This document shows positions 12,291 to 40,388 of a DNA stretch of 64,000 nucleotides, one piece after another. The number at the start of each line of letters is the position of its first letter. Position 1 is the stretch's first letter. Position numbers and translations under genes: made by a program. The stretch covers positions 903 to 64,902 of the forward strand of contig CAZQWS010000005.1 in the NCBI GenBank assembly GCA_964597355.1, given 5' to 3'. This DNA is from an uncultured Bdellovibrionales bacterium (GTDB lineage: Bacteria > Patescibacteriota > Minisyncoccia > Moranbacterales > UBA1568). The notes under the pieces were generated by a model. The model was not told where the DNA came from. It made no database searches and saw only the letters and a program-made list of their open reading frames with translations.

Positions 12291-12318
12291 TAGACAAAAT
12301 AGCAAAAAAGTGTATAAT
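12291..12318 (+). promoter_or_regulatory. promoter of DGR target gene 1 (-35 TAGACA, 16-nt spacer, extended -10 TGTATAAT)
   Basis: tagaca 12291-12296, tgtataat 12311-12318; homologous copies upstream of target 2 (13361-13389) and of ORF 37494 (37332-37360). Confidence 0.6.
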
Positions 12319-12470: not shown

Positions 12471-13100
12471 ATGACACAGCGTGTCGCCGACGAAGTCATC
12501 TCACGTTTTGCACGTCAACAGCACGATTGGATGGGGCGTGTCCTCAAGGGATCGCTTGATCCAACCGAAGTGGCCCGGGTCGTGCAGGCCATTATCGATC
12601 GTGGTTTACGCTACCCACTGCTTTCGGAAAGGAAGCTCCTCAAGCCCGTCGCCACGGCGACCGCGGCCAAGGATCCGCCCTTCGTGAACGAGTTCTTCCA
12701 GAGCCGTCCCGGCCTCTACGTCTGGGACTCGTTCCGTGAACGCTTCGATCTCAAGGCATTATCCCAGTCGGTGGGCGGCCGTCCCTACGTCGCCTCTCTC
12801 TTGAAGTTGAACGCCTACGATCGTGACATTCGCCGGGAACTGCCGGAGAACAACCTCTCGGCCTTGGAAGACATCGCCGGCTTCATCGAGGCCCAGCCGA
12901 ATGGCAAGGAGGGCTTCCTTCTCACTAACGGTTACGCGAACATCTTCTACGTCGAAGGGCGTAACGGTGAAGTCTTCTCCGTGGATGTTTTCTGGTTCTC
13001 CGACCGCCGCCGGTGGAGCGTCCGCGACTGGAGGCTCGACGAGAATGGCTCGTGGAGTGCTGGCGACCAGGTTCTCTGCCCCGGCAACGCCGCACTCTGA
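12471..13100 (+). CDS. DGR target protein paralog 1 (variable C-terminal domain, VR1)
   Basis: 209 aa, ~60% GC vs ~48% background. Shares 'FQSRPGLYVWDSFRER...PYVASLLK.NAYDRDIRRELPEN.LS.LEDIAGFIEAQP.GK.GFLL.NGYAN.FYVEG.NGE' with the downstream paralog; its C-terminal ~115 nt align to the TR with mostly adenine-site differences. Confidence 0.8.
   Translation: MTQRVADEVISRFARQQHDWMGRVLKGSLDPTEVARVVQAIIDRGLRYPLLSERKLLKPVATATAAKDPPFVNEFFQSRPGLYVWDSFRERFDLKALSQSVGGRPYVASLLKLNAYDRDIRRELPENNLSALEDIAGFIEAQPNGKEGFLLTNGYANIFYVEGRNGEVFSVDVFWFSDRRRWSVRDWRLDENGSWSAGDQVLCPGNAAL
12972..13086 (+). repeat. VR1: variable repeat at the 3' end of target gene 1 (diverged from TR)
   Basis: Aligns codon-for-codon with TR 14504-14620; ~20 differences at TR adenines plus ~12 non-adenine differences. 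Confidence 0.6.
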
Positions 13101-13142
13101 CCCTTCAGTCCATTGGGCAAAGACCCTTGGATACTTAGTCCC

Positions 13143-13193
13143 TTAGACCCTTGGAAACCGCATCGCGGCTACCGGGGGTCTTTTTGTTTTGCT
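13143..13193 (+). repeat. 51-bp element ttagacccttggaaaccgcatcgcggctaccgggggtctttttgttttgct downstream of VR1 (identical copy downstream of VR2); hairpin plus T-run, candidate terminator/IMH-associated structure
   Basis: Exact 51-bp identity between 13143-13193 and 14224-14274; contains ccgc-atc-gcgg hairpin and gaccc/gggtc flanks, then TTTTTGTTTT; preceded by tandem GACCCTTGGA motifs. Confidence 0.6.
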
Positions 13194-13195
13194 CC

Positions 13196-13281
13196 CCTAC
13201 AAGCAGAACAATATTTCAGCCGGTGTAGGTGTGACCGCGGCGTTGTCAGCCTATGACTTTATCCGTAAAGGCAAAGGTTAG
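13196..13281 (+). pseudogene. duplicated 3' fragment of trxB (encodes '..PYKQNNISAGVGVTAALSAYDFIRKGKG*', no start)
   Basis: ~80% nt identity to trxB 12111-12195; followed by duplicated hairpin (13283-13303, compensatory changes preserve stem), terminator hairpin (13318-13346) and promoter. Confidence 0.8.
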
Positions 13282-13360
13282 ATTGGGAAGCCCGGCTTCC
13301 AAGTAAGAAGAGGTAGTAAAAAGAGGCTTGAGTAAGCCTCTTTTTCGTACCCCGTATGAC

Positions 13361-13389
13361 TAGACAAAAGTACCAAAAAGGTGTACAAT
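13361..13389 (+). promoter_or_regulatory. promoter of DGR target gene 2 (-35 TAGACA, 17-nt spacer, -10 TACAAT with upstream TG)
   Basis: Duplicate of the 12291-12318 promoter module. Confidence 0.55.
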
Positions 13390-13463
13390 TATAGGTTGCA
13401 GGTGAGAACTTGCTTCTGCCCCGATTCCCGGCATATGGGAATTACCTTGAAAAGGAGACTGCG

Positions 13464-14168
13464 ATGACGACTCAGTCGATCACGCAAGACCAGGAAAAGC
13501 AACTGAAGCGCTTCCTCGAAGACGCGTCCATAGCGGCGACCCGTTCGGCCCTTGCGCAGGTGTCCCTCGACAAAGAGGGCTCCCAGCAGGTCATCGAACG
13601 GGGCGACCAGCTCAAGGCCGAAATCGAACGCGCCACCGTCGCCATCCTGAAGAAGTTGAGTTCCCGCTATTCGGTCGTCGGTGAAACACGGCTCCTCAAG
13701 CCCGCCGCCGCCTCGACCGCTCGGGCCCGGACTAAGCCGTTCGACCCCTCCGAGTTCTTCCAGAACCGTCCCGGGCTTTACGTCTGGGATTCGTTCCGCG
13801 AGCGGCTCGACATCGAAAACCGCAAGCTCGTTCCGTCGGCTCCCGAACGTCCCTATGTGGCGTCCCTCCTGAAGTCGAATGCCTATGACCGAGACATCCG
13901 CCGGGAATTGCCCGAGAACCATCTCTCGACACTCGAAGACATCGCGGGCTTCATCGAAGCCCAGCCGGAAGGCAAGTCGGGGTTCCTCCTGAACAACGGC
14001 TACGCGAACAACTTCTACGTCGAAGGACACAACGGCGAAATCTTCGCCGTGCGTGTCCTCTGGTACTCGGACAACCTTGAGTGGGACGTCCGCGTTTGGT
14101 TCCTCGATGAGCGTGACTGGTGGCGCGCCGAGCGCCAGGTCGTCTGTCCCGGAAACGTGTCGCTCTGA
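13464..14168 (+). CDS. DGR target protein paralog 2 (variable C-terminal domain, VR2)
   Basis: ATG 13464 with AAGGAG SD (ORF track extends to TTG 13410); 234 aa, GC-rich, paralog of 12471-13100; last ~38 codons are the VR matching the TR. Confidence 0.85.
   Translation: MTTQSITQDQEKQLKRFLEDASIAATRSALAQVSLDKEGSQQVIERGDQLKAEIERATVAILKKLSSRYSVVGETRLLKPAAASTARARTKPFDPSEFFQNRPGLYVWDSFRERLDIENRKLVPSAPERPYVASLLKSNAYDRDIRRELPENHLSTLEDIAGFIEAQPEGKSGFLLNNGYANNFYVEGHNGEIFAVRVLWYSDNLEWDVRVWFLDERDWWRAERQVVCPGNVSL
14040..14153 (+). repeat. VR2: variable repeat at the 3' end of target gene 2
   Basis: 114-nt alignment to TR 14504-14617: 21 substitutions, every one at a TR adenine (aat>cgt, aac>ctc/tac/gac/cgc/ttc, aag>gag, gat>gtt, agg>tgg, cca>ccc), zero at C/G/T positions. 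Confidence 0.9.
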
Positions 14169-14223
14169 CGCTTCGGTCCCTTGGGTCTCTGATTTGTATT
14201 CTGACCCTTGGACCCTCAGTCTC

Positions 14224-14274
14224 TTAGACCCTTGGAAACCGCATCGCGGCTACCGGGGGTCTTTTTGTTTTGCT
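14224..14274 (+). repeat. second copy of the 51-bp post-VR hairpin/T-run element
   Basis: Identical to 13143-13193. Confidence 0.6.
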
Positions 14275-14503
14275 ACAGTAAAAGCGGTATGTTGAAAATC
14301 CCTTCCGGCTACGGCTGGCAGAGCAAGATGCTGGAATGAAAGCGGATGAGAGCCGGAGCAGATACCAACTTCTTCGGGAGAACGCTTTTGTTTCAAAAAA
14401 TATATTGCGTTGGTGTCTTGAGCTTGAGGACTTCGAGGTCCCGCATACGATACAGCTCTGAGAGTAGTCGAGGAGCAGTGGAACGGACGGCTCAAGGCAC
14501 GGA

Positions 14504-14620
14504 ATCTTCGCCGTGAATGTCAACTGGAACTCGGACAACCTTAAGTGGAACGTCAACGATTGGAACCTCGATGAGAATGACAGGTGGAACGCCAAGAACC
14601 AGGTCGTCTGTCCAGGCCAC
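14504..14620 (+). repeat. DGR template repeat (TR)
   Basis: Truncated copy of the target 3' end lacking the N-terminal gene body and start codon; encodes '...IFAVNVNWNSDNLKWNVNDWNLDENDRWNAKNQVVCPG' with 8 AAC + 2 AAT codons exactly at the positions that vary in VR1/VR2. Confidence 0.9.
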
Positions 14621-14638
14621 GCACAAAGTTTCTCTCGC

Positions 14639-14989
14639 CTATTTCGGCGGGAGTTTTGTTTCGAGGCCTTTCTTCCAACCGCCAAGCATCCGGCCTGTTT
14701 CGTTCAACTCCATTGAAAGAGTAGAATACTTCTTGTGATCAATGAGTTTATTTTCCCAACCAAGCTGAAGAAAAAACTTTATGATATCTACCTTTCCGAC
14801 GGTGGCTGTTAAATAGGCTATTTTTTGTTCTGATTTGGTATACTGAGCTCGAAAGATATACTCGAGAGCTTCAAGAAAAATTGCATCTACTTTACCGCCA
14901 AAAGTATAGCGATGGGTTTTGGGAATATGCGGAACACACTGAAGCCACAAATTATATGAAAGTTTTAACTTCTGAACCACTGGCAACAC
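14639..14989 (-). CDS. avd: DGR accessory variability determinant (Avd), four-helix-bundle / 23S rRNA-IVS protein family
   Basis: ~113-116 aa. The pattern 'PKTHRYTFGGKVDAIFLEALEYIF...KIAYLTATVGKVDIIKFFLQLGWE...ETGRMLGGWKKGLE' parallels Bordetella phage Avd ('PRKHGVAREMFLKCLLGQVELF...EVGRILGSWIARVNRK'). Likely start GTG 14980 preceded by AGGTG SD; it lies between TR and RT but on the opposite strand. Confidence 0.7.
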   Translation of the reverse strand: MLPVVQKLKLSYNLWLQCVPHIPKTHRYTFGGKVDAIFLEALEYIFRAQYTKSEQKIAYLTATVGKVDIIKFFLQLGWENKLIDHKKYSTLSMELNETGRMLGGWKKGLETKLPPK

Positions 14990-14993
14990 CTGC

Positions 14994-15002
14994 GGGGGGG
15001 GG
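14994..15002. repeat. G9/C9 homopolymeric tract between divergent avd and RT
   Basis: Nine consecutive G (14994-15002) ~5 nt upstream of the avd SD on the minus strand and inside the open N-terminal extension of the RT frame. Confidence 0.8.
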
Positions 15003-15076
15003 TATTAGAGGCATATCGAAAACGTAAAAAATTAGACATCGCTTACCATGATATCATTTCTCTCGACAACCTCCTC

Positions 15077-16048
15077 TTGGCTTGGCAATCCTTTGTGAAA
15101 GGAAAAAGACAAAAGAAAGACGTTCAGGAATTTGAACTTCATTTGATGGATAACCTGATAGATCTTCGCGAGTCGTTCAAAACCAAAACCTATACCCACG
15201 GTTCCTACCATGCCTTCAAAGTAAATGATCCAAAGCCGAGAGATATTCACAAAGCAAGGGTGAAAGATCGAGTTCTTCATCATCTTCTCTATCAAGCTCT
15301 CTCACTCTTCTTCTTCAAGCGCTTCATTCATGACTCTTATTCTTGCCAGGATGGCAAAGGCATTCACAAGGCTTTACTCAGGTTTGAAACTTTCTCAAGG
15401 AAAGTTTCCAAGAACCATACGAAACAGTGTTTTGTCTTGAAATGCGACATCCGCAAGTTTTTCGCGAGTATTGATCAGGCAATACTTCTCAAGATTCTCG
15501 AAGAGTGGATTGAAGACAAAGAGGTACTGTGGCTTCTCAAAAGAGTGATACAGAGCTTCTGGATCCCGGATCACCCGCCCGAACGTACCAGTTCGGTACG
15601 GGCGGGAGTCCGGGATGACACAAAGAGAGGATTACCCCTGGGCAATCTGACATCCCAGCTTCTGGTGAATATCTATCTGAATGAGTTTGACCAGTTTGTG
15701 AAGCATGTTCTTAAAGTACGGCATTATATCCGGTATGCCGATGACTTTGTAATCCTCTCGCACGACAAGAGTGAACTTCAAACACTACTTATCAAGCTTC
15801 AAACCTTTCTCAAGTTGAGGCTTAATCTTGACCTTCACCCGAACAAAGTCTCAATAGAGACTCTTGGAAGTGGAGTAGACTTCTTGGGTTGGGTGCATTT
15901 TCCTGATCACAGAGTATTACGAACGGTAACGAAGCGGAGGATGATGAAGAAGGTGAATCCGAAGAATATTGCTTCGTACTTGGGAATGCTTGATTGGGGA
16001 AATGGGTGGAAATTAAAACAATTGATAGAAGATTTGTTTGACTTCTAG
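15077..16048 (+). CDS. DGR reverse transcriptase
   Basis: RT motifs: 'LLAWQSFVKGKRQKKDVQEF' (DGR RT N-terminus), 'PKPRDIHKARVKDRVLHHLLY', motif 4 'LPLGNLTSQLLVNIYL' (DGR-specific [LIV]GxxxSQ) and motif 5 'RYADDFVIL' (YxDD). The frame stays open upstream to 14969 with RT-like residues ('LEAYRKRKKLDIAYHDIISLDNLLL') but no in-frame ATG/GTG; TTG 15077 is the track start. Confidence 0.9.
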   Translation: MAWQSFVKGKRQKKDVQEFELHLMDNLIDLRESFKTKTYTHGSYHAFKVNDPKPRDIHKARVKDRVLHHLLYQALSLFFFKRFIHDSYSCQDGKGIHKALLRFETFSRKVSKNHTKQCFVLKCDIRKFFASIDQAILLKILEEWIEDKEVLWLLKRVIQSFWIPDHPPERTSSVRAGVRDDTKRGLPLGNLTSQLLVNIYLNEFDQFVKHVLKVRHYIRYADDFVILSHDKSELQTLLIKLQTFLKLRLNLDLHPNKVSIETLGSGVDFLGWVHFPDHRVLRTVTKRRMMKKVNPKNIASYLGMLDWGNGWKLKQLIEDLFDF

Positions 16049-16082
16049 GTAAAAAGCTGCTATACTGGTAGAGTAAATGAAG

Positions 16083-16110
16083 AAACGGGTGAATGCCCGT
16101 TTTCTTTTTT
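16083..16110 (+). terminator. rho-independent terminator after RT (aaacggg-tgaatg-cccgttt + TTTCTTTTTT)
   Basis: 7-bp GC-containing stem and T-run read directly. Confidence 0.7.
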
Positions 16111-16136: not shown

Positions 16137-16195
16137 ACCACCACACCAATAGTGCCTTGAGTAAAGAGTATTTAGGGCTTTATTGGTGTGGTGGT
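16137..16195. other. perfect 15-bp stem-loop (accaccacaccaata ... tattggtgtggtggt, 29-nt loop) within a ~250-bp structured intergenic region
   Basis: Exact reverse complement arms; followed by further hairpins (ggcgaaagcc, ctggga..tcccag, gccgctt..aagcggc) up to 16330; no recognised ncRNA family motif. Confidence 0.4.
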
Positions 16196-16395
16196 ACATA
16201 GTAGTTAAAAGGCGAAAGCCTCCTATTCTGGGACAGGGTTCCCTCTCCCAGCGAGCAGTGCCAATTAAACGGTCCTGCCGCCACCAACAGTCTGCCGCTT
16301 CGGTCCATTGTGATCTAAGCGGCTTTGAATTTCCCCCTTGTCTTAGGTAATTTTTCAGCTTGAAAAAGAGGGTGTTTTGGGCTATACTCCCCCTT

Positions 16396-38018: not shown

Positions 38019-40388
38019 TTAGGGCAATTGAAAGGAGAAAGTACCGCTGGGGCGAGCGATGAGGAGTTCGTTGTTTCTGGTTACGTTGATAGTCCTTGCA
38101 TCACTGAGCGAATTATGAAAGTACTGGGCGATGAGGGTGCCGGTAGAAGACCAGCGTACAATCCGTTTTTCTTTGGGATCGAGAGCATAGACATCACCAT
38201 TTTTTGGATCGATGGTAAGAGCTTTGGTTTCGAGGGGTGTTTGGGTTCCGGCGAACGCAGCTTCAGTTTTACGACCGCTGCTATAGAGGGCTGGGTGACC
38301 GTCTGGGAGTACGATAGCTACATTTTCAAAGATGGACAAGGGTGAAATGGGGTGGATAGTGAGCGTTTCTTTGGACCATCGTGTGGGAGCGCCAAAACCT
38401 CCTTCGACTCGAGGGAAACGATAGAGAGTGCCAGCTTTGCGATCGAGTACATAGAGATAGGTGAGATAGGTTCCAAGAGCATCAATCTGAGTATTGCCCG
38501 GAAGAGGGAGAGTATTTTGCTCAAACTTTTTGTTAGCGACGGTAAAAATATACAGTGTTCCGGATTGACCGAGGAGGAACAGTGCATCGAGGTCATCCAT
38601 GGCAGTAGCTAAACGAATAGGTTCAGGTAGAGCAGTAGACTCGCTAGTTTTTAGGTTAACGATACGCTCGCTACGGATATCGAAAGGAGTATTATTGATA
38701 AGACTGAGTGCGATAGGTTCGCCATTGAAAGAAGAGATCACACGGCTTTCACTGAGACGGACTGCGAGTGGTTCATTTTCTGATGTAATTGATGAAGGTG
38801 TGAGAGGCGCAACAGTATCGGATAGCGAAGGAACTACTACTGCTGGTTGCTCCCAGACGGGAGAGCGGTTGAGGTAGAACCATGTTCCGAGGCCAATGGT
38901 GACAAGAACTACGCCACTACCAGCCATGATCTGCCGGGTGCGTTTGCTTTGATCTTGCCAGAATATGAGACTGCGTTGCCAGGCGGCTTGGATATATCGG
39001 AGAGTACTATGGTTCACTTGAATGAGTACCTGCTTAGTTTGACCTATCCAGGCAACGAACGTATCGAAGGGAAAAGAGATCGATGGTTTTGGTAGTCGGG
39101 GCAGGGTAACTTTTTTCCAATTGTCTTTTAGGTTTTCTTTGAGAGAAAAGGAAGGGAGTGACGAAGCAGAAGTAGTTGTAGTAGCTTCGGTTGGAGGGAC
39201 TGGAAGAGTGATTGCTGATGATTTTCTAGTCTCACGAATTTTGCGTATATGGCGGAGGGAGGAACGGATGCGGCGCAGTCCCTTGCGTCCGGAACTAGCC
39301 ATCTGGTCTTCAACACCGCTTATGAAAAAAGCAATGTTTTTGCGACTTCGGCGACCAAAACGACGAAGCTTTTCGCGACTAAGTTGCCATGATTGTGAAA
39401 GTGAGTGAGACCAAAGAGTCAGTCGAGTTTTCCATGGCTCCTCCTCTTGTTCAGCTTCTTCTTCTCCATGGACATAAATATGGCCAGTTTTTTTGTCGAT
39501 GTATTCTTGCTGGTGTTCTTTTGGGGGGGTAGTCGGTGGGGGGGATGTAAAAGCCTTGAGGCGGGATGATCGAGCTTTTTCAAATGTCTGGCCACTCCAT
39601 ACATTGAGAAGTTTAGTGGCTTCTGTTTCTTCTCCCAAAGCCTCCTTTGTCTGTTTGGGAGTTGGGGTGGTTATCGGGGCAGCTGAGACGTTGATTACCA
39701 CGGCTCCAGCGATGGGGAGCTCGTTTATGAGGGCAGTATGGAGAAACTGTTCAAAGCCTTTCTGACCAAGCCGGGCTAAATTTTTCTTAAGGTCTTCTGG
39801 GGTAAAGAGAGTCCAGACGGCAGGGGAGAGAGCGAGGAGTACGTCGCTTTCAATGAGCTTACCACTCGAGACCTCGGTGAAGGTTTTGAGAGGGTGGGGT
39901 TCAGTTGAGACTTCCGCCAATCCATCACTAATAGGCCGCAAGGTCTGCTCGCGAACGAGAGCCAGTACCCCATCGCCAGTTGCCGAGAAATGAACGGTGT
40001 TATCAGCAATAGCGCCCAAGATTCCATGCAGGTGTCCAAGCCACGAAACATTGCCTTCCTTGGCAATTTCAGCGAGAGCAACATTGACTTTGTGGAGAGT
40101 GGTTTCGAAACTATCACTTACCTCTCTCCGCGGGTTGGTGAAGTATTCTTTTTTAGCGACGGAGGCAAGAAAGTTAACAATGTAGGCCGCGTCTTCGTCG
40201 TGTATCTCCACTTCAAAGAAGCCAAAAAGCGTACCAAGCGGTTTGCCAGCGACATTGTCACTTTTGTAGTGGAAAGCAATGATATAAGGTTCGGCATGCC
40301 GCCCTGACCCAACCGCAATAGCATTGAAAACACACTGAACGGAGGATGGCGATTTCCCTTCCTTCCGGCGTGAGACTCGTTCTTTCAT
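38019..40388 (-). CDS. hypothetical membrane protein, 789 aa (cytoplasmic N-terminal domain with weak PP2C-like features, single TM, large extracytoplasmic C-terminal domain)
   Basis: TM 'IMAGSGVVLVTIGLGTWFYL'; N-terminal 'IAVGSGRHAE...VHFSATGDGVL' faintly PPM-like; C-terminal beta-rich repeats. Confidence 0.5.
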   Translation of the reverse strand: MKERVSRRKEGKSPSSVQCVFNAIAVGSGRHAEPYIIAFHYKSDNVAGKPLGTLFGFFEVEIHDEDAAYIVNFLASVAKKEYFTNPRREVSDSFETTLHKVNVALAEIAKEGNVSWLGHLHGILGAIADNTVHFSATGDGVLALVREQTLRPISDGLAEVSTEPHPLKTFTEVSSGKLIESDVLLALSPAVWTLFTPEDLKKNLARLGQKGFEQFLHTALINELPIAGAVVINVSAAPITTPTPKQTKEALGEETEATKLLNVWSGQTFEKARSSRLKAFTSPPPTTPPKEHQQEYIDKKTGHIYVHGEEEAEQEEEPWKTRLTLWSHSLSQSWQLSREKLRRFGRRSRKNIAFFISGVEDQMASSGRKGLRRIRSSLRHIRKIRETRKSSAITLPVPPTEATTTTSASSLPSFSLKENLKDNWKKVTLPRLPKPSISFPFDTFVAWIGQTKQVLIQVNHSTLRYIQAAWQRSLIFWQDQSKRTRQIMAGSGVVLVTIGLGTWFYLNRSPVWEQPAVVVPSLSDTVAPLTPSSITSENEPLAVRLSESRVISSFNGEPIALSLINNTPFDIRSERIVNLKTSESTALPEPIRLATAMDDLDALFLLGQSGTLYIFTVANKKFEQNTLPLPGNTQIDALGTYLTYLYVLDRKAGTLYRFPRVEGGFGAPTRWSKETLTIHPISPLSIFENVAIVLPDGHPALYSSGRKTEAAFAGTQTPLETKALTIDPKNGDVYALDPKEKRIVRWSSTGTLIAQYFHNSLSDARTINVTRNNELLIARPSGTFSFQLP

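Follow-up and report, generated by a model that had tools for sequence, protein, structure and literature searches.

Positions 12471-16048 of the 64 kb stretch of DNA analysed here (the window) very probably hold a genuine chromosomal diversity-generating retroelement (DGR) of a lineage specific to the Candidate Phyla Radiation (CPR), laid out as target, template repeat (TR), (avd) and reverse transcriptase (RT), with one cognate target gene and one non-cognate paralog of it. The element was recently active, and its type is already well described from the CPR. The interval contains two paralogous open reading frames (ORFs), a repeat, a small minus-strand ORF and the RT ORF; the coordinates of all features are collected in Table 1. 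Repeat finding returned a three-copy family at 12968-13089, 14036-14157 and 14500-14621 together with a tandem unit of about 1070 nt that spans both targets and their flanks. No further copy of TR or of a variable repeat (VR), and no second RT, was found in the window. The first-pass annotation, made from the sequence alone, had described a complete DGR that diversifies a two-copy target family. The completeness is borne out, with every component that it listed located where it had been placed: an RT of the DGR clade, Avd, TR, a VR with adenine-only mismatches (VR2) and an adenine-only strain variant were all found.

The central evidence is the relation between TR and VR2, the variable repeat of target 2. 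TR contains 34 adenines, 32 of which occupy codon positions 1 and 2, and 11 AAY codons, in agreement with the Asn-rich character noted at first reading; its 22 mutable codons give about 10^18.7 possible peptides. In ungapped register, VR2 and TR differ at 21 sites, all of them TR adenines, with no non-adenine mismatch within 14503-14615. Over 116 nt, the count is 21 adenine and 0-1 other mismatches, which is far beyond chance (Fisher p 2.8e-13). The 3′ ends of VR2 and TR share 22 nt with three differences (CCCGGAAACG vs CCAGGCCACG). The adenine-only pattern is typical of related loci: in a TR/VR survey of about 70 of them, we counted 5-25 adenine and 0-2 non-adenine mismatches, with a maximum of five non-adenine mismatches, and only one locus (L069) has two clean VRs.

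A natural variant of VR2 provides direct evidence of activity at the allele level. The closest homolog of target 2 (P0001) is encoded on an independent, 1111-nt metagenome contig from SRR33452761 (locus L004), which aligns to window positions 13164-14274 without gaps at 98.9% identity. All 12 differences between the two sequences fall in VR2 and at TR adenines, and there are none elsewhere in the 1111 nt. By our own calculation, the probability of such a placement at random is about (34/1111)^12, roughly 1e-18. The L004 VR differs from TR at 23 adenine and 0 non-adenine positions. The sample also yielded contig L090, which matches the window at 100% identity over avd and the 5′ part of RT. The adenine-restricted heterogeneity that the first-pass annotation had proposed to look for is thus seen in VR2, and the element is demonstrably rewriting the C-terminal tip of target 2.

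Several observations weigh against this interpretation. The first concerns the start of RT. The conserved N-terminus of the enzyme, which is present in the Bordetella DGR RT (bRT) and in all relatives, begins with IISLDNLL (15053). However, there is no in-frame ATG, GTG or TTG from the stop at 14966 to TTG 15077, and starting at TTG 15077 would drop the conserved IISLDNLL residues. The relatives start 6-12 codons before the IIS motif, mostly with ATG and in the P0126 group with GTG or TTG; at this position the window reads AAA TTA GAC ATC. The missing canonical start is common to four independent assemblies. Three Moranbacteria relatives have an ATG before the G-tract of the avd-RT junction that is in frame with RT through the tract, whereas the corresponding ATG in the window (14953) reads through the tract out of frame with RT. 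With no canonical start codon, expression of RT must rely on a non-canonical start, on the truncating TTG or on slippage, and the enzyme could be impaired. Outside RT, Avd scores 73.1 bits against the NCBIfam model DivGenRetAVD, just under the cut-off of 80, and a simple scan found no promoter for the TR RNA. Lastly, there is no clear hairpin adjacent to the initiation of mutagenic homing (IMH) site; the nearest GC-rich hairpin lies about 75 nt past VR2 and, with the T-run behind it, resembles a normal terminator.

The observations on the RT start would fit a relic without any remaining diversifying activity, recently inactivated when a change of TTG to TTA at 15032 removed the start codon, all the more as the start-less state recurs across assemblies. 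We consider this unlikely. The two VR2 alleles differ at adenine sites only, and they come from lineages with an identical avd/RT region (L004 and L090, from one sample). In addition, TR is intact, and apart from its start the RT ORF is unbroken and retains every catalytic motif. The recent turnover of VR2 argues that the RT enzyme is made. As a separate observation, gene callers place the RT start at ATG 15146, which yields a protein of 300 aa.

The situation differs for target 1. The first-pass annotation had assigned a VR to each of two targets; VR2 is clean, but VR1, although VR-like, is not a clean VR of this TR. Mismatches between VR1 and TR fall on 21 of 34 adenines and on 16 of 82 non-adenine positions. 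The non-adenine rate of 19.5% matches the divergence of 20% between the paralogs immediately before the VR. The genome L001 (ERZ15185090) is syntenic with the window; it shows the gene order murD-csoR-SDR-trxB-target1 (SDR, short-chain dehydrogenase/reductase) and has no target 2, TR, avd or RT at this locus; their place is taken by an incomplete trxB copy of 235 aa, longer than the trxB fragment found at the equivalent place in the window, and by a 299-aa ORF that is unrelated. Between L001 and the window, target 1 has 6 differences in the roughly 500 positions that surround the VR (98.8% identical) and 25 inside the VR, of which 18 are TR-adenine positions and seven are non-adenine positions. 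Ten non-adenine differences to TR are common to both VR1 alleles and, being shared, look inherited.

One could argue that the one TR still serves both paralogs and that the non-adenine differences of VR1 stem from low-fidelity copying, as suggested for some CPR DGRs. The mismatches of VR1 are indeed enriched at TR adenines (Fisher p 1.9e-5), and between the window and L001 it is strongly divergent within an otherwise 98.8% identical gene. Multi-target DGRs with unequal mutation patterns are also on record, with at most 11 non-adenine differences in a curated set (Wu et al., PMC5758913). Nevertheless, we regard a shared TR as very unlikely: the same RT and TR gave no non-adenine change in two independent alleles of VR2, the non-adenine rate of VR1 equals the neutral divergence of the paralogs, the ten common differences look inherited, L001 keeps target 1 without RT, Avd or TR at the locus, and the 16 non-adenine mismatches of VR1 compare with a maximum of five among the related loci. 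The claim of a diversified two-copy target family is therefore not supported as worded. Because the non-adenine rate equals the paralog background, the relatives show at most five such mismatches and seven of the differences from L001 are non-adenine, VR1 is best assigned to another or an earlier TR; it was diversified, but by a different or older template, and has not been rewritten by the present one.

Regarding a cognate cassette for genes of the target 1 type, no RT is visible beside the targets in L001, L091 and L092; the L091 contig stops some 90 nt beyond its target gene and is hence uninformative on a neighbouring RT. Similar orphan members of the target family were noted in L092, L093 (P0104) and L001, with no RT or Avd within several kilobases, which suggests DGRs acting in trans or stranded former targets in Moranbacteria genomes.

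The region between the two targets records how the tandem pair arose. Before the promoter-like site of target 2 lies an 86-nt fragment of the trxB 3′ end. It differs from the end of the real trxB in 17 codons, and all 17 differences are synonymous, with no non-synonymous change. Such synonymous-only divergence indicates that the fragment evolved within a working trxB of another lineage, so that the module was imported by recombination and not duplicated in place. We therefore conclude that a module consisting of the trxB fragment, promoter, target 2, TR, avd and RT was imported beside a resident trxB-target 1 pair, and that target 1 is a diverged paralog and a leftover of the recombination. 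The same cassette occurs in another context, inside the suf/nif cluster of another Moranbacteria genome (L005-L007).

The RT ORF (15077-16048, plus strand) contains GLPLGNLTSQ, which includes motif 4 of DGR RTs ([LIV]GxxxSQ), and RYADDF, so both motifs named in the first-pass annotation are present. It matches Pfam RVT_1 with E 2.6e-24. Among all PDB sequences, the top match is the Bordetella DGR RT 8ub7 (135 bits, E 2.8e-38), followed by a group II intron RT (57 bits, E 1.5e-14), about 78 bits below bRT. The enzyme thus lies nearer to bRT than to the RTs of group II introns or retrons, the comparison on which the earlier assignment had been staked. An origin of RT in a group II intron, a retron or a defence system (defence-associated RT, DRT, or abortive infection, Abi), with the repeats as ordinary paralog similarity, has a negligible probability: its best NCBIfam match is a group II RT/maturase at 130 bits against a cut-off of 300, with weak Drt3a and retron matches, whereas all group II, retron and DRT models stay far below their cut-offs, Avd, TR and adenine-only mismatches are present next to the gene, and Rfam at gathering and E-value thresholds returned no intron RNA and no DGR-related or other RNA.

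One part of the RT gene stands out in its sequence. Positions 15561-15616 form an in-frame, GC-rich, near-perfect palindrome (RNA fold of -37.5 kcal/mol). Its product is an extra segment of about 18 aa that separates RT motifs 3 and 4. The insertions of relatives at this site measure 0-45 aa and are unrelated in sequence, which points to an insertion hotspot in a surface loop.

The product of the minus-strand ORF matches Pfam bAvd with 53 bits (cut-off 40). The Avd-like gene of the first-pass annotation was correctly recognized, but its orientation opposite to RT had been missed. Avd has 228 homologs at E up to 1e-10, and PF22296 was found in all 120 among the matches listed. When RT was used to scan GTDB species genomes, at least 575 relatives were obtained; the best 80 of these (L008-L087) are 56-61% identical and are almost all labelled as metagenome-assembled genomes (MAGs) of Patescibacteria/CPR. 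The homologs of the targets are named Candidatus Moranbacteria, and the CPR-like nature of the genome, proposed earlier from the letters alone, is supported by both. An avd gene was detected in 76 of the 80 loci, always directly upstream of RT on the opposite strand, with TR just beyond its 3′ end. The order in the window, namely target upstream, TR, reverse-strand avd and RT, is the same in all 76. This is the B3 layout, TR-(avd)-RT, which is typical of CPR DGRs (Wu et al. 2018, PMC5758913), and the element also corresponds to DGR clade 2, which comprises Patescibacteria only and has targets without known domains (Roux et al. 2021, PMC8144416).

The published CPR DGRs share with the window the gene order and strands, an avd gene divergent from RT, a cell-borne chromosomal location, a small target without recognisable domain, signal peptide or transmembrane segment, a C-terminal VR and a TR rich in AAY codons. 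The window differs from them in its extra non-cognate paralog upstream and in its RT without a canonical start. Elements of this kind were reportedly first described by Paul and colleagues in 2017. The DGR of Bordetella phage BPP-1 (mtd-avd-TR-brt) resembles the window in its homologous RT, its Avd, the adenine-specific flow of information from TR to VR, and the location of the VR at the C-terminus of a binding protein. Treponema denticola TvpA and the other DGR variable proteins with C-type-lectin or formylglycine-generating-enzyme (FGE)-like folds are also counted among the closest known systems.

Directly 3′ of TR, a hairpin followed by GUUUUGUUU overlaps the 3′ end of avd on the other strand. 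The hairpin and GUUUUGUUU are kept in 36 related loci (alignment A4) with compensatory changes in the stem, and a conserved CGCAACTCTCTTCATTTC-type motif precedes the hairpin. The TR RNA is probably a short transcript of its own, for which the hairpin and GUUUUGUUU would serve as terminator and/or as a handle for RT-Avd. The element is a candidate for the functional equivalent of the Bordetella spacer RNA element. Hairpins with T-runs also follow both targets as copies of direct repeat D4; a simple terminator scan missed that of target 1, which has internal loops, and the D4 hairpins were read from the sequence.

By analogy with the Bordetella paradigm, from which the cDNA and homing steps are taken, a short plus-strand TR RNA ending at the hairpin and U-tract would be copied by an RT-Avd complex, with misincorporation opposite template adenines. 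The cDNA would then replace VR2 at the 3′ end of target 2, and up to 22 codons (about 10^18-19 peptides) could be recoded on the C-terminal β-strands of a small soluble protein. The identities of the components, the adenine-only pattern between TR and VR2 and the adenine-only differences of the natural variant are direct observations.

Regarding the protein that is diversified, targets 1 and 2 are about 60% identical at the protein level and have a GC content of 60-61.5% compared with 47% for the window, so their earlier description as GC-rich paralogs is accurate. The first-pass annotation had given target 2 a longer ORF from TTG 13410; the homologs are mostly 234 aa long. A protein search with target 2 returned 146 homologs, and every one with a named source belongs to Moranbacteria/Moraniibacteriota; none has a Pfam domain. 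Pfam and NCBIfam searches with both targets and 96 family members gave nothing meaningful, and inspection of target 2 revealed no signal peptide and no transmembrane segment. The AlphaFold2 model of target 2 consists of an N-terminal three-helix part and a C-terminal α/β domain, with a pLDDT of 78.7 for the full-length protein, and of 81.2 with a pTM of 0.81 for the domain alone. In the model, the VR occupies the last three or four β-strands, and the family pattern in this region, FAVxVxWxSxxRxWxVxxWxLxExGxWxAxxQVLCPGNAAL, alternates conserved W/V with hypervariable positions. A Foldseek search of the model against PDB gave no match. We read the VR domain as a putative, very divergent binding domain of the C-type-lectin-like kind; its fold would agree with the 'novel C-Lec variants' that have been predicted among the targets of CPR DGRs (PMC8144416). 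Thus, the lectin fold that had been put forward for the C-terminus finds a compatible predicted domain, but its support is weak, with neither Foldseek nor Pfam returning a match. A fold distinct from the C-type-lectin scaffold would be a weaker, additional reading.

The composition of the target genes is also unusual. They have 60-62% GC and 18-20% A in every genome examined (the window, L001, L006, L091 and L092), compared with 47-51% GC for the surrounding loci and 40-43% for RT and avd. The high-GC, adenine-poor targets could reflect a foreign origin or selection against adenines.

A further feature of the locus is the homopolymer between the divergent avd and RT genes, which is G9 on one strand and C9 on the other. 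It is the only G/C run of at least 8 in the window, and the only other runs of at least 7 are two G7 runs 15 nt apart at 39523-39544. We compared the junction in 78 loci (77 related loci and the window). A G-run of 5-13 is present in 69 of these, with a mode of 9-10. Eight of the other nine carry (CTGG)n, (CTGATTG)n, (GT)n, (GA)n or (TC)n, and only L072 lacks any repeat there. Over 834 kb of sequence from these loci, 63 of 68 G/C runs of at least 8 are located at this junction. The tract or a substitute repeat was recorded at the same position in nearly all loci across L005-L087 and L095-L110. We searched the literature and found no report of an avd-RT junction tract in DGRs.

The sequences on both sides of the tract have a promoter-like arrangement. 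Nineteen loci have exactly 13 nt from the end of the tract to the RT ATG, and in 18 of these, positions 1, 2 and 6 of the 13 nt are T, A and T. The resulting TAnnnT suggests, from its sequence and position, a -10-like hexamer 7 nt before the RT ATG and a leaderless RT mRNA. The codons for L-P-V of avd read CTGGCA on the RT strand, which is -35-like, and the tract would fill most of a 17-19-nt spacer; the window has CTGGCA, 17 nt and TATTAG. Simple-repeat contingency promoters are known from the poly-G spacer of Neisseria porA and the divergent hifA/hifB promoters of Haemophilus. The junction resembles them in its homopolymer or simple repeat between divergent genes, located in a promoter/5′ region, and in the flanking -35-like CTGGCA and -10-like TAnnnT of 18 of the 19 loci with 13-nt spacing. 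Unlike contingency loci, which show length polymorphism among close strains, its length is invariant within lineages: no polymorphism was seen within five lineages and 23 assemblies (G9 in four, G9 in three, G8 in four, G8 in five and G10 in seven), a comparison that used consensus assemblies and in which two groups are biased since the protein looked up includes the tract.

Two other explanations of the tract were rejected. An assembly error is ruled out by an identical G9 in three independent assemblies. Translation of avd through the C-tract from an upstream ATG, that is, translational phase variation, finds no frame enrichment across the 69 loci, where the closest ATG with an open path to avd lies in the avd frame in 16, in +1 in 33 and in +2 in 20. 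A tract of 8 in the window would bring both upstream ATGs in frame with avd, and the usual avd start in related loci is a TTG or GTG directly before the conserved LP. The tract is a robust comparative observation and its function is hypothetical. One possibility, about which we are doubtful, is that the repeat is a hypermutable or supercoil-sensitive switch that would form the spacer of a leaderless RT promoter, would also lie within the 5′ leader of avd and would set the expression of the mutagenic machinery.

Downstream of the element, the intergenic region 16150-16360 upstream of murA is 93.5% conserved relative to L001, compared with about 86% for the flanking genes. It folds better than shuffled controls (z -3.0), has no Rfam match and may be an unannotated leader or small RNA.

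Table 1. Features of the DGR locus and its flanks, in window coordinates.
Feature	Position	Strand	Remarks
Promoter-like site before target 1, TAGACA-16-TATAAT	12291..12318	+	11/12 matches; inside direct repeat D3
Target paralog 1, 209 aa	12471-13100	+	Not templated by the present TR; trxB-target1 synteny kept in L001 and L091
VR1, degenerate or foreign variable repeat	12971-13084	+	21 adenine and 16 non-adenine mismatches
Terminator-like hairpin and T-run after target 1	13146..13191	+	Direct repeat D4, 90% identity
Orphan trxB 3′ end (last 29 codons), left edge of imported module	13192..13277	+	Repeat D5
Promoter-like site before target 2, TAGACA-17-TACAAT	13361..13389	+	10/12 matches
Target 2, 237 aa	13455-14168	+	N-terminal helical part and C-terminal domain of ~160 aa carrying the VR
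VR2, active variable repeat	14039-14152	+	All TR mismatches at TR adenines
Terminator-like hairpin and T-run after target 2	14227..14272	+	Second D4 copy
TR	14503-14616	+	Translation GIFAVNVNWNSDNLKWNVNDWNLDENDRWNAKNQVVCPG; 34 adenines; 22 mutable codons
Hairpin and GUUUUGUUU directly 3′ of TR	14632..14663	+	Terminator-like call; overlaps the 3′ end of avd (minus strand)
avd, 116 aa from GTG 14989	14639-14989	-	Pfam bAvd; NCBIfam Avd
G9/C9 homopolymer between avd (GTG 14989) and RT starts	14994..15002	.	Only G/C run of at least 8 in the window
DGR reverse transcriptase	15035..16048	+	Homology from ~15053; first in-frame canonical start TTG 15077
Terminator-like hairpin after RT	16082..16103	+	

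In summary, the locus adds one more well-documented example of a CPR DGR, with direct evidence of activity at the allele level, and its neighbouring paralog shows that 'two-target' calls from sequence similarity alone can be wrong. Only the conserved repeat at the avd-RT junction and the uncertain fold of the target go beyond the known picture. The junction tract or its substitutes are near-universal over hundreds of kilobases of CPR loci and are therefore of wider interest. If the proposed switch is true, the repeat would be a second-order control of evolvability on top of a hypermutation system, and if the tract controls the expression of RT or Avd, it would explain how symbionts with tiny genomes restrain or pulse a dangerous mutator.

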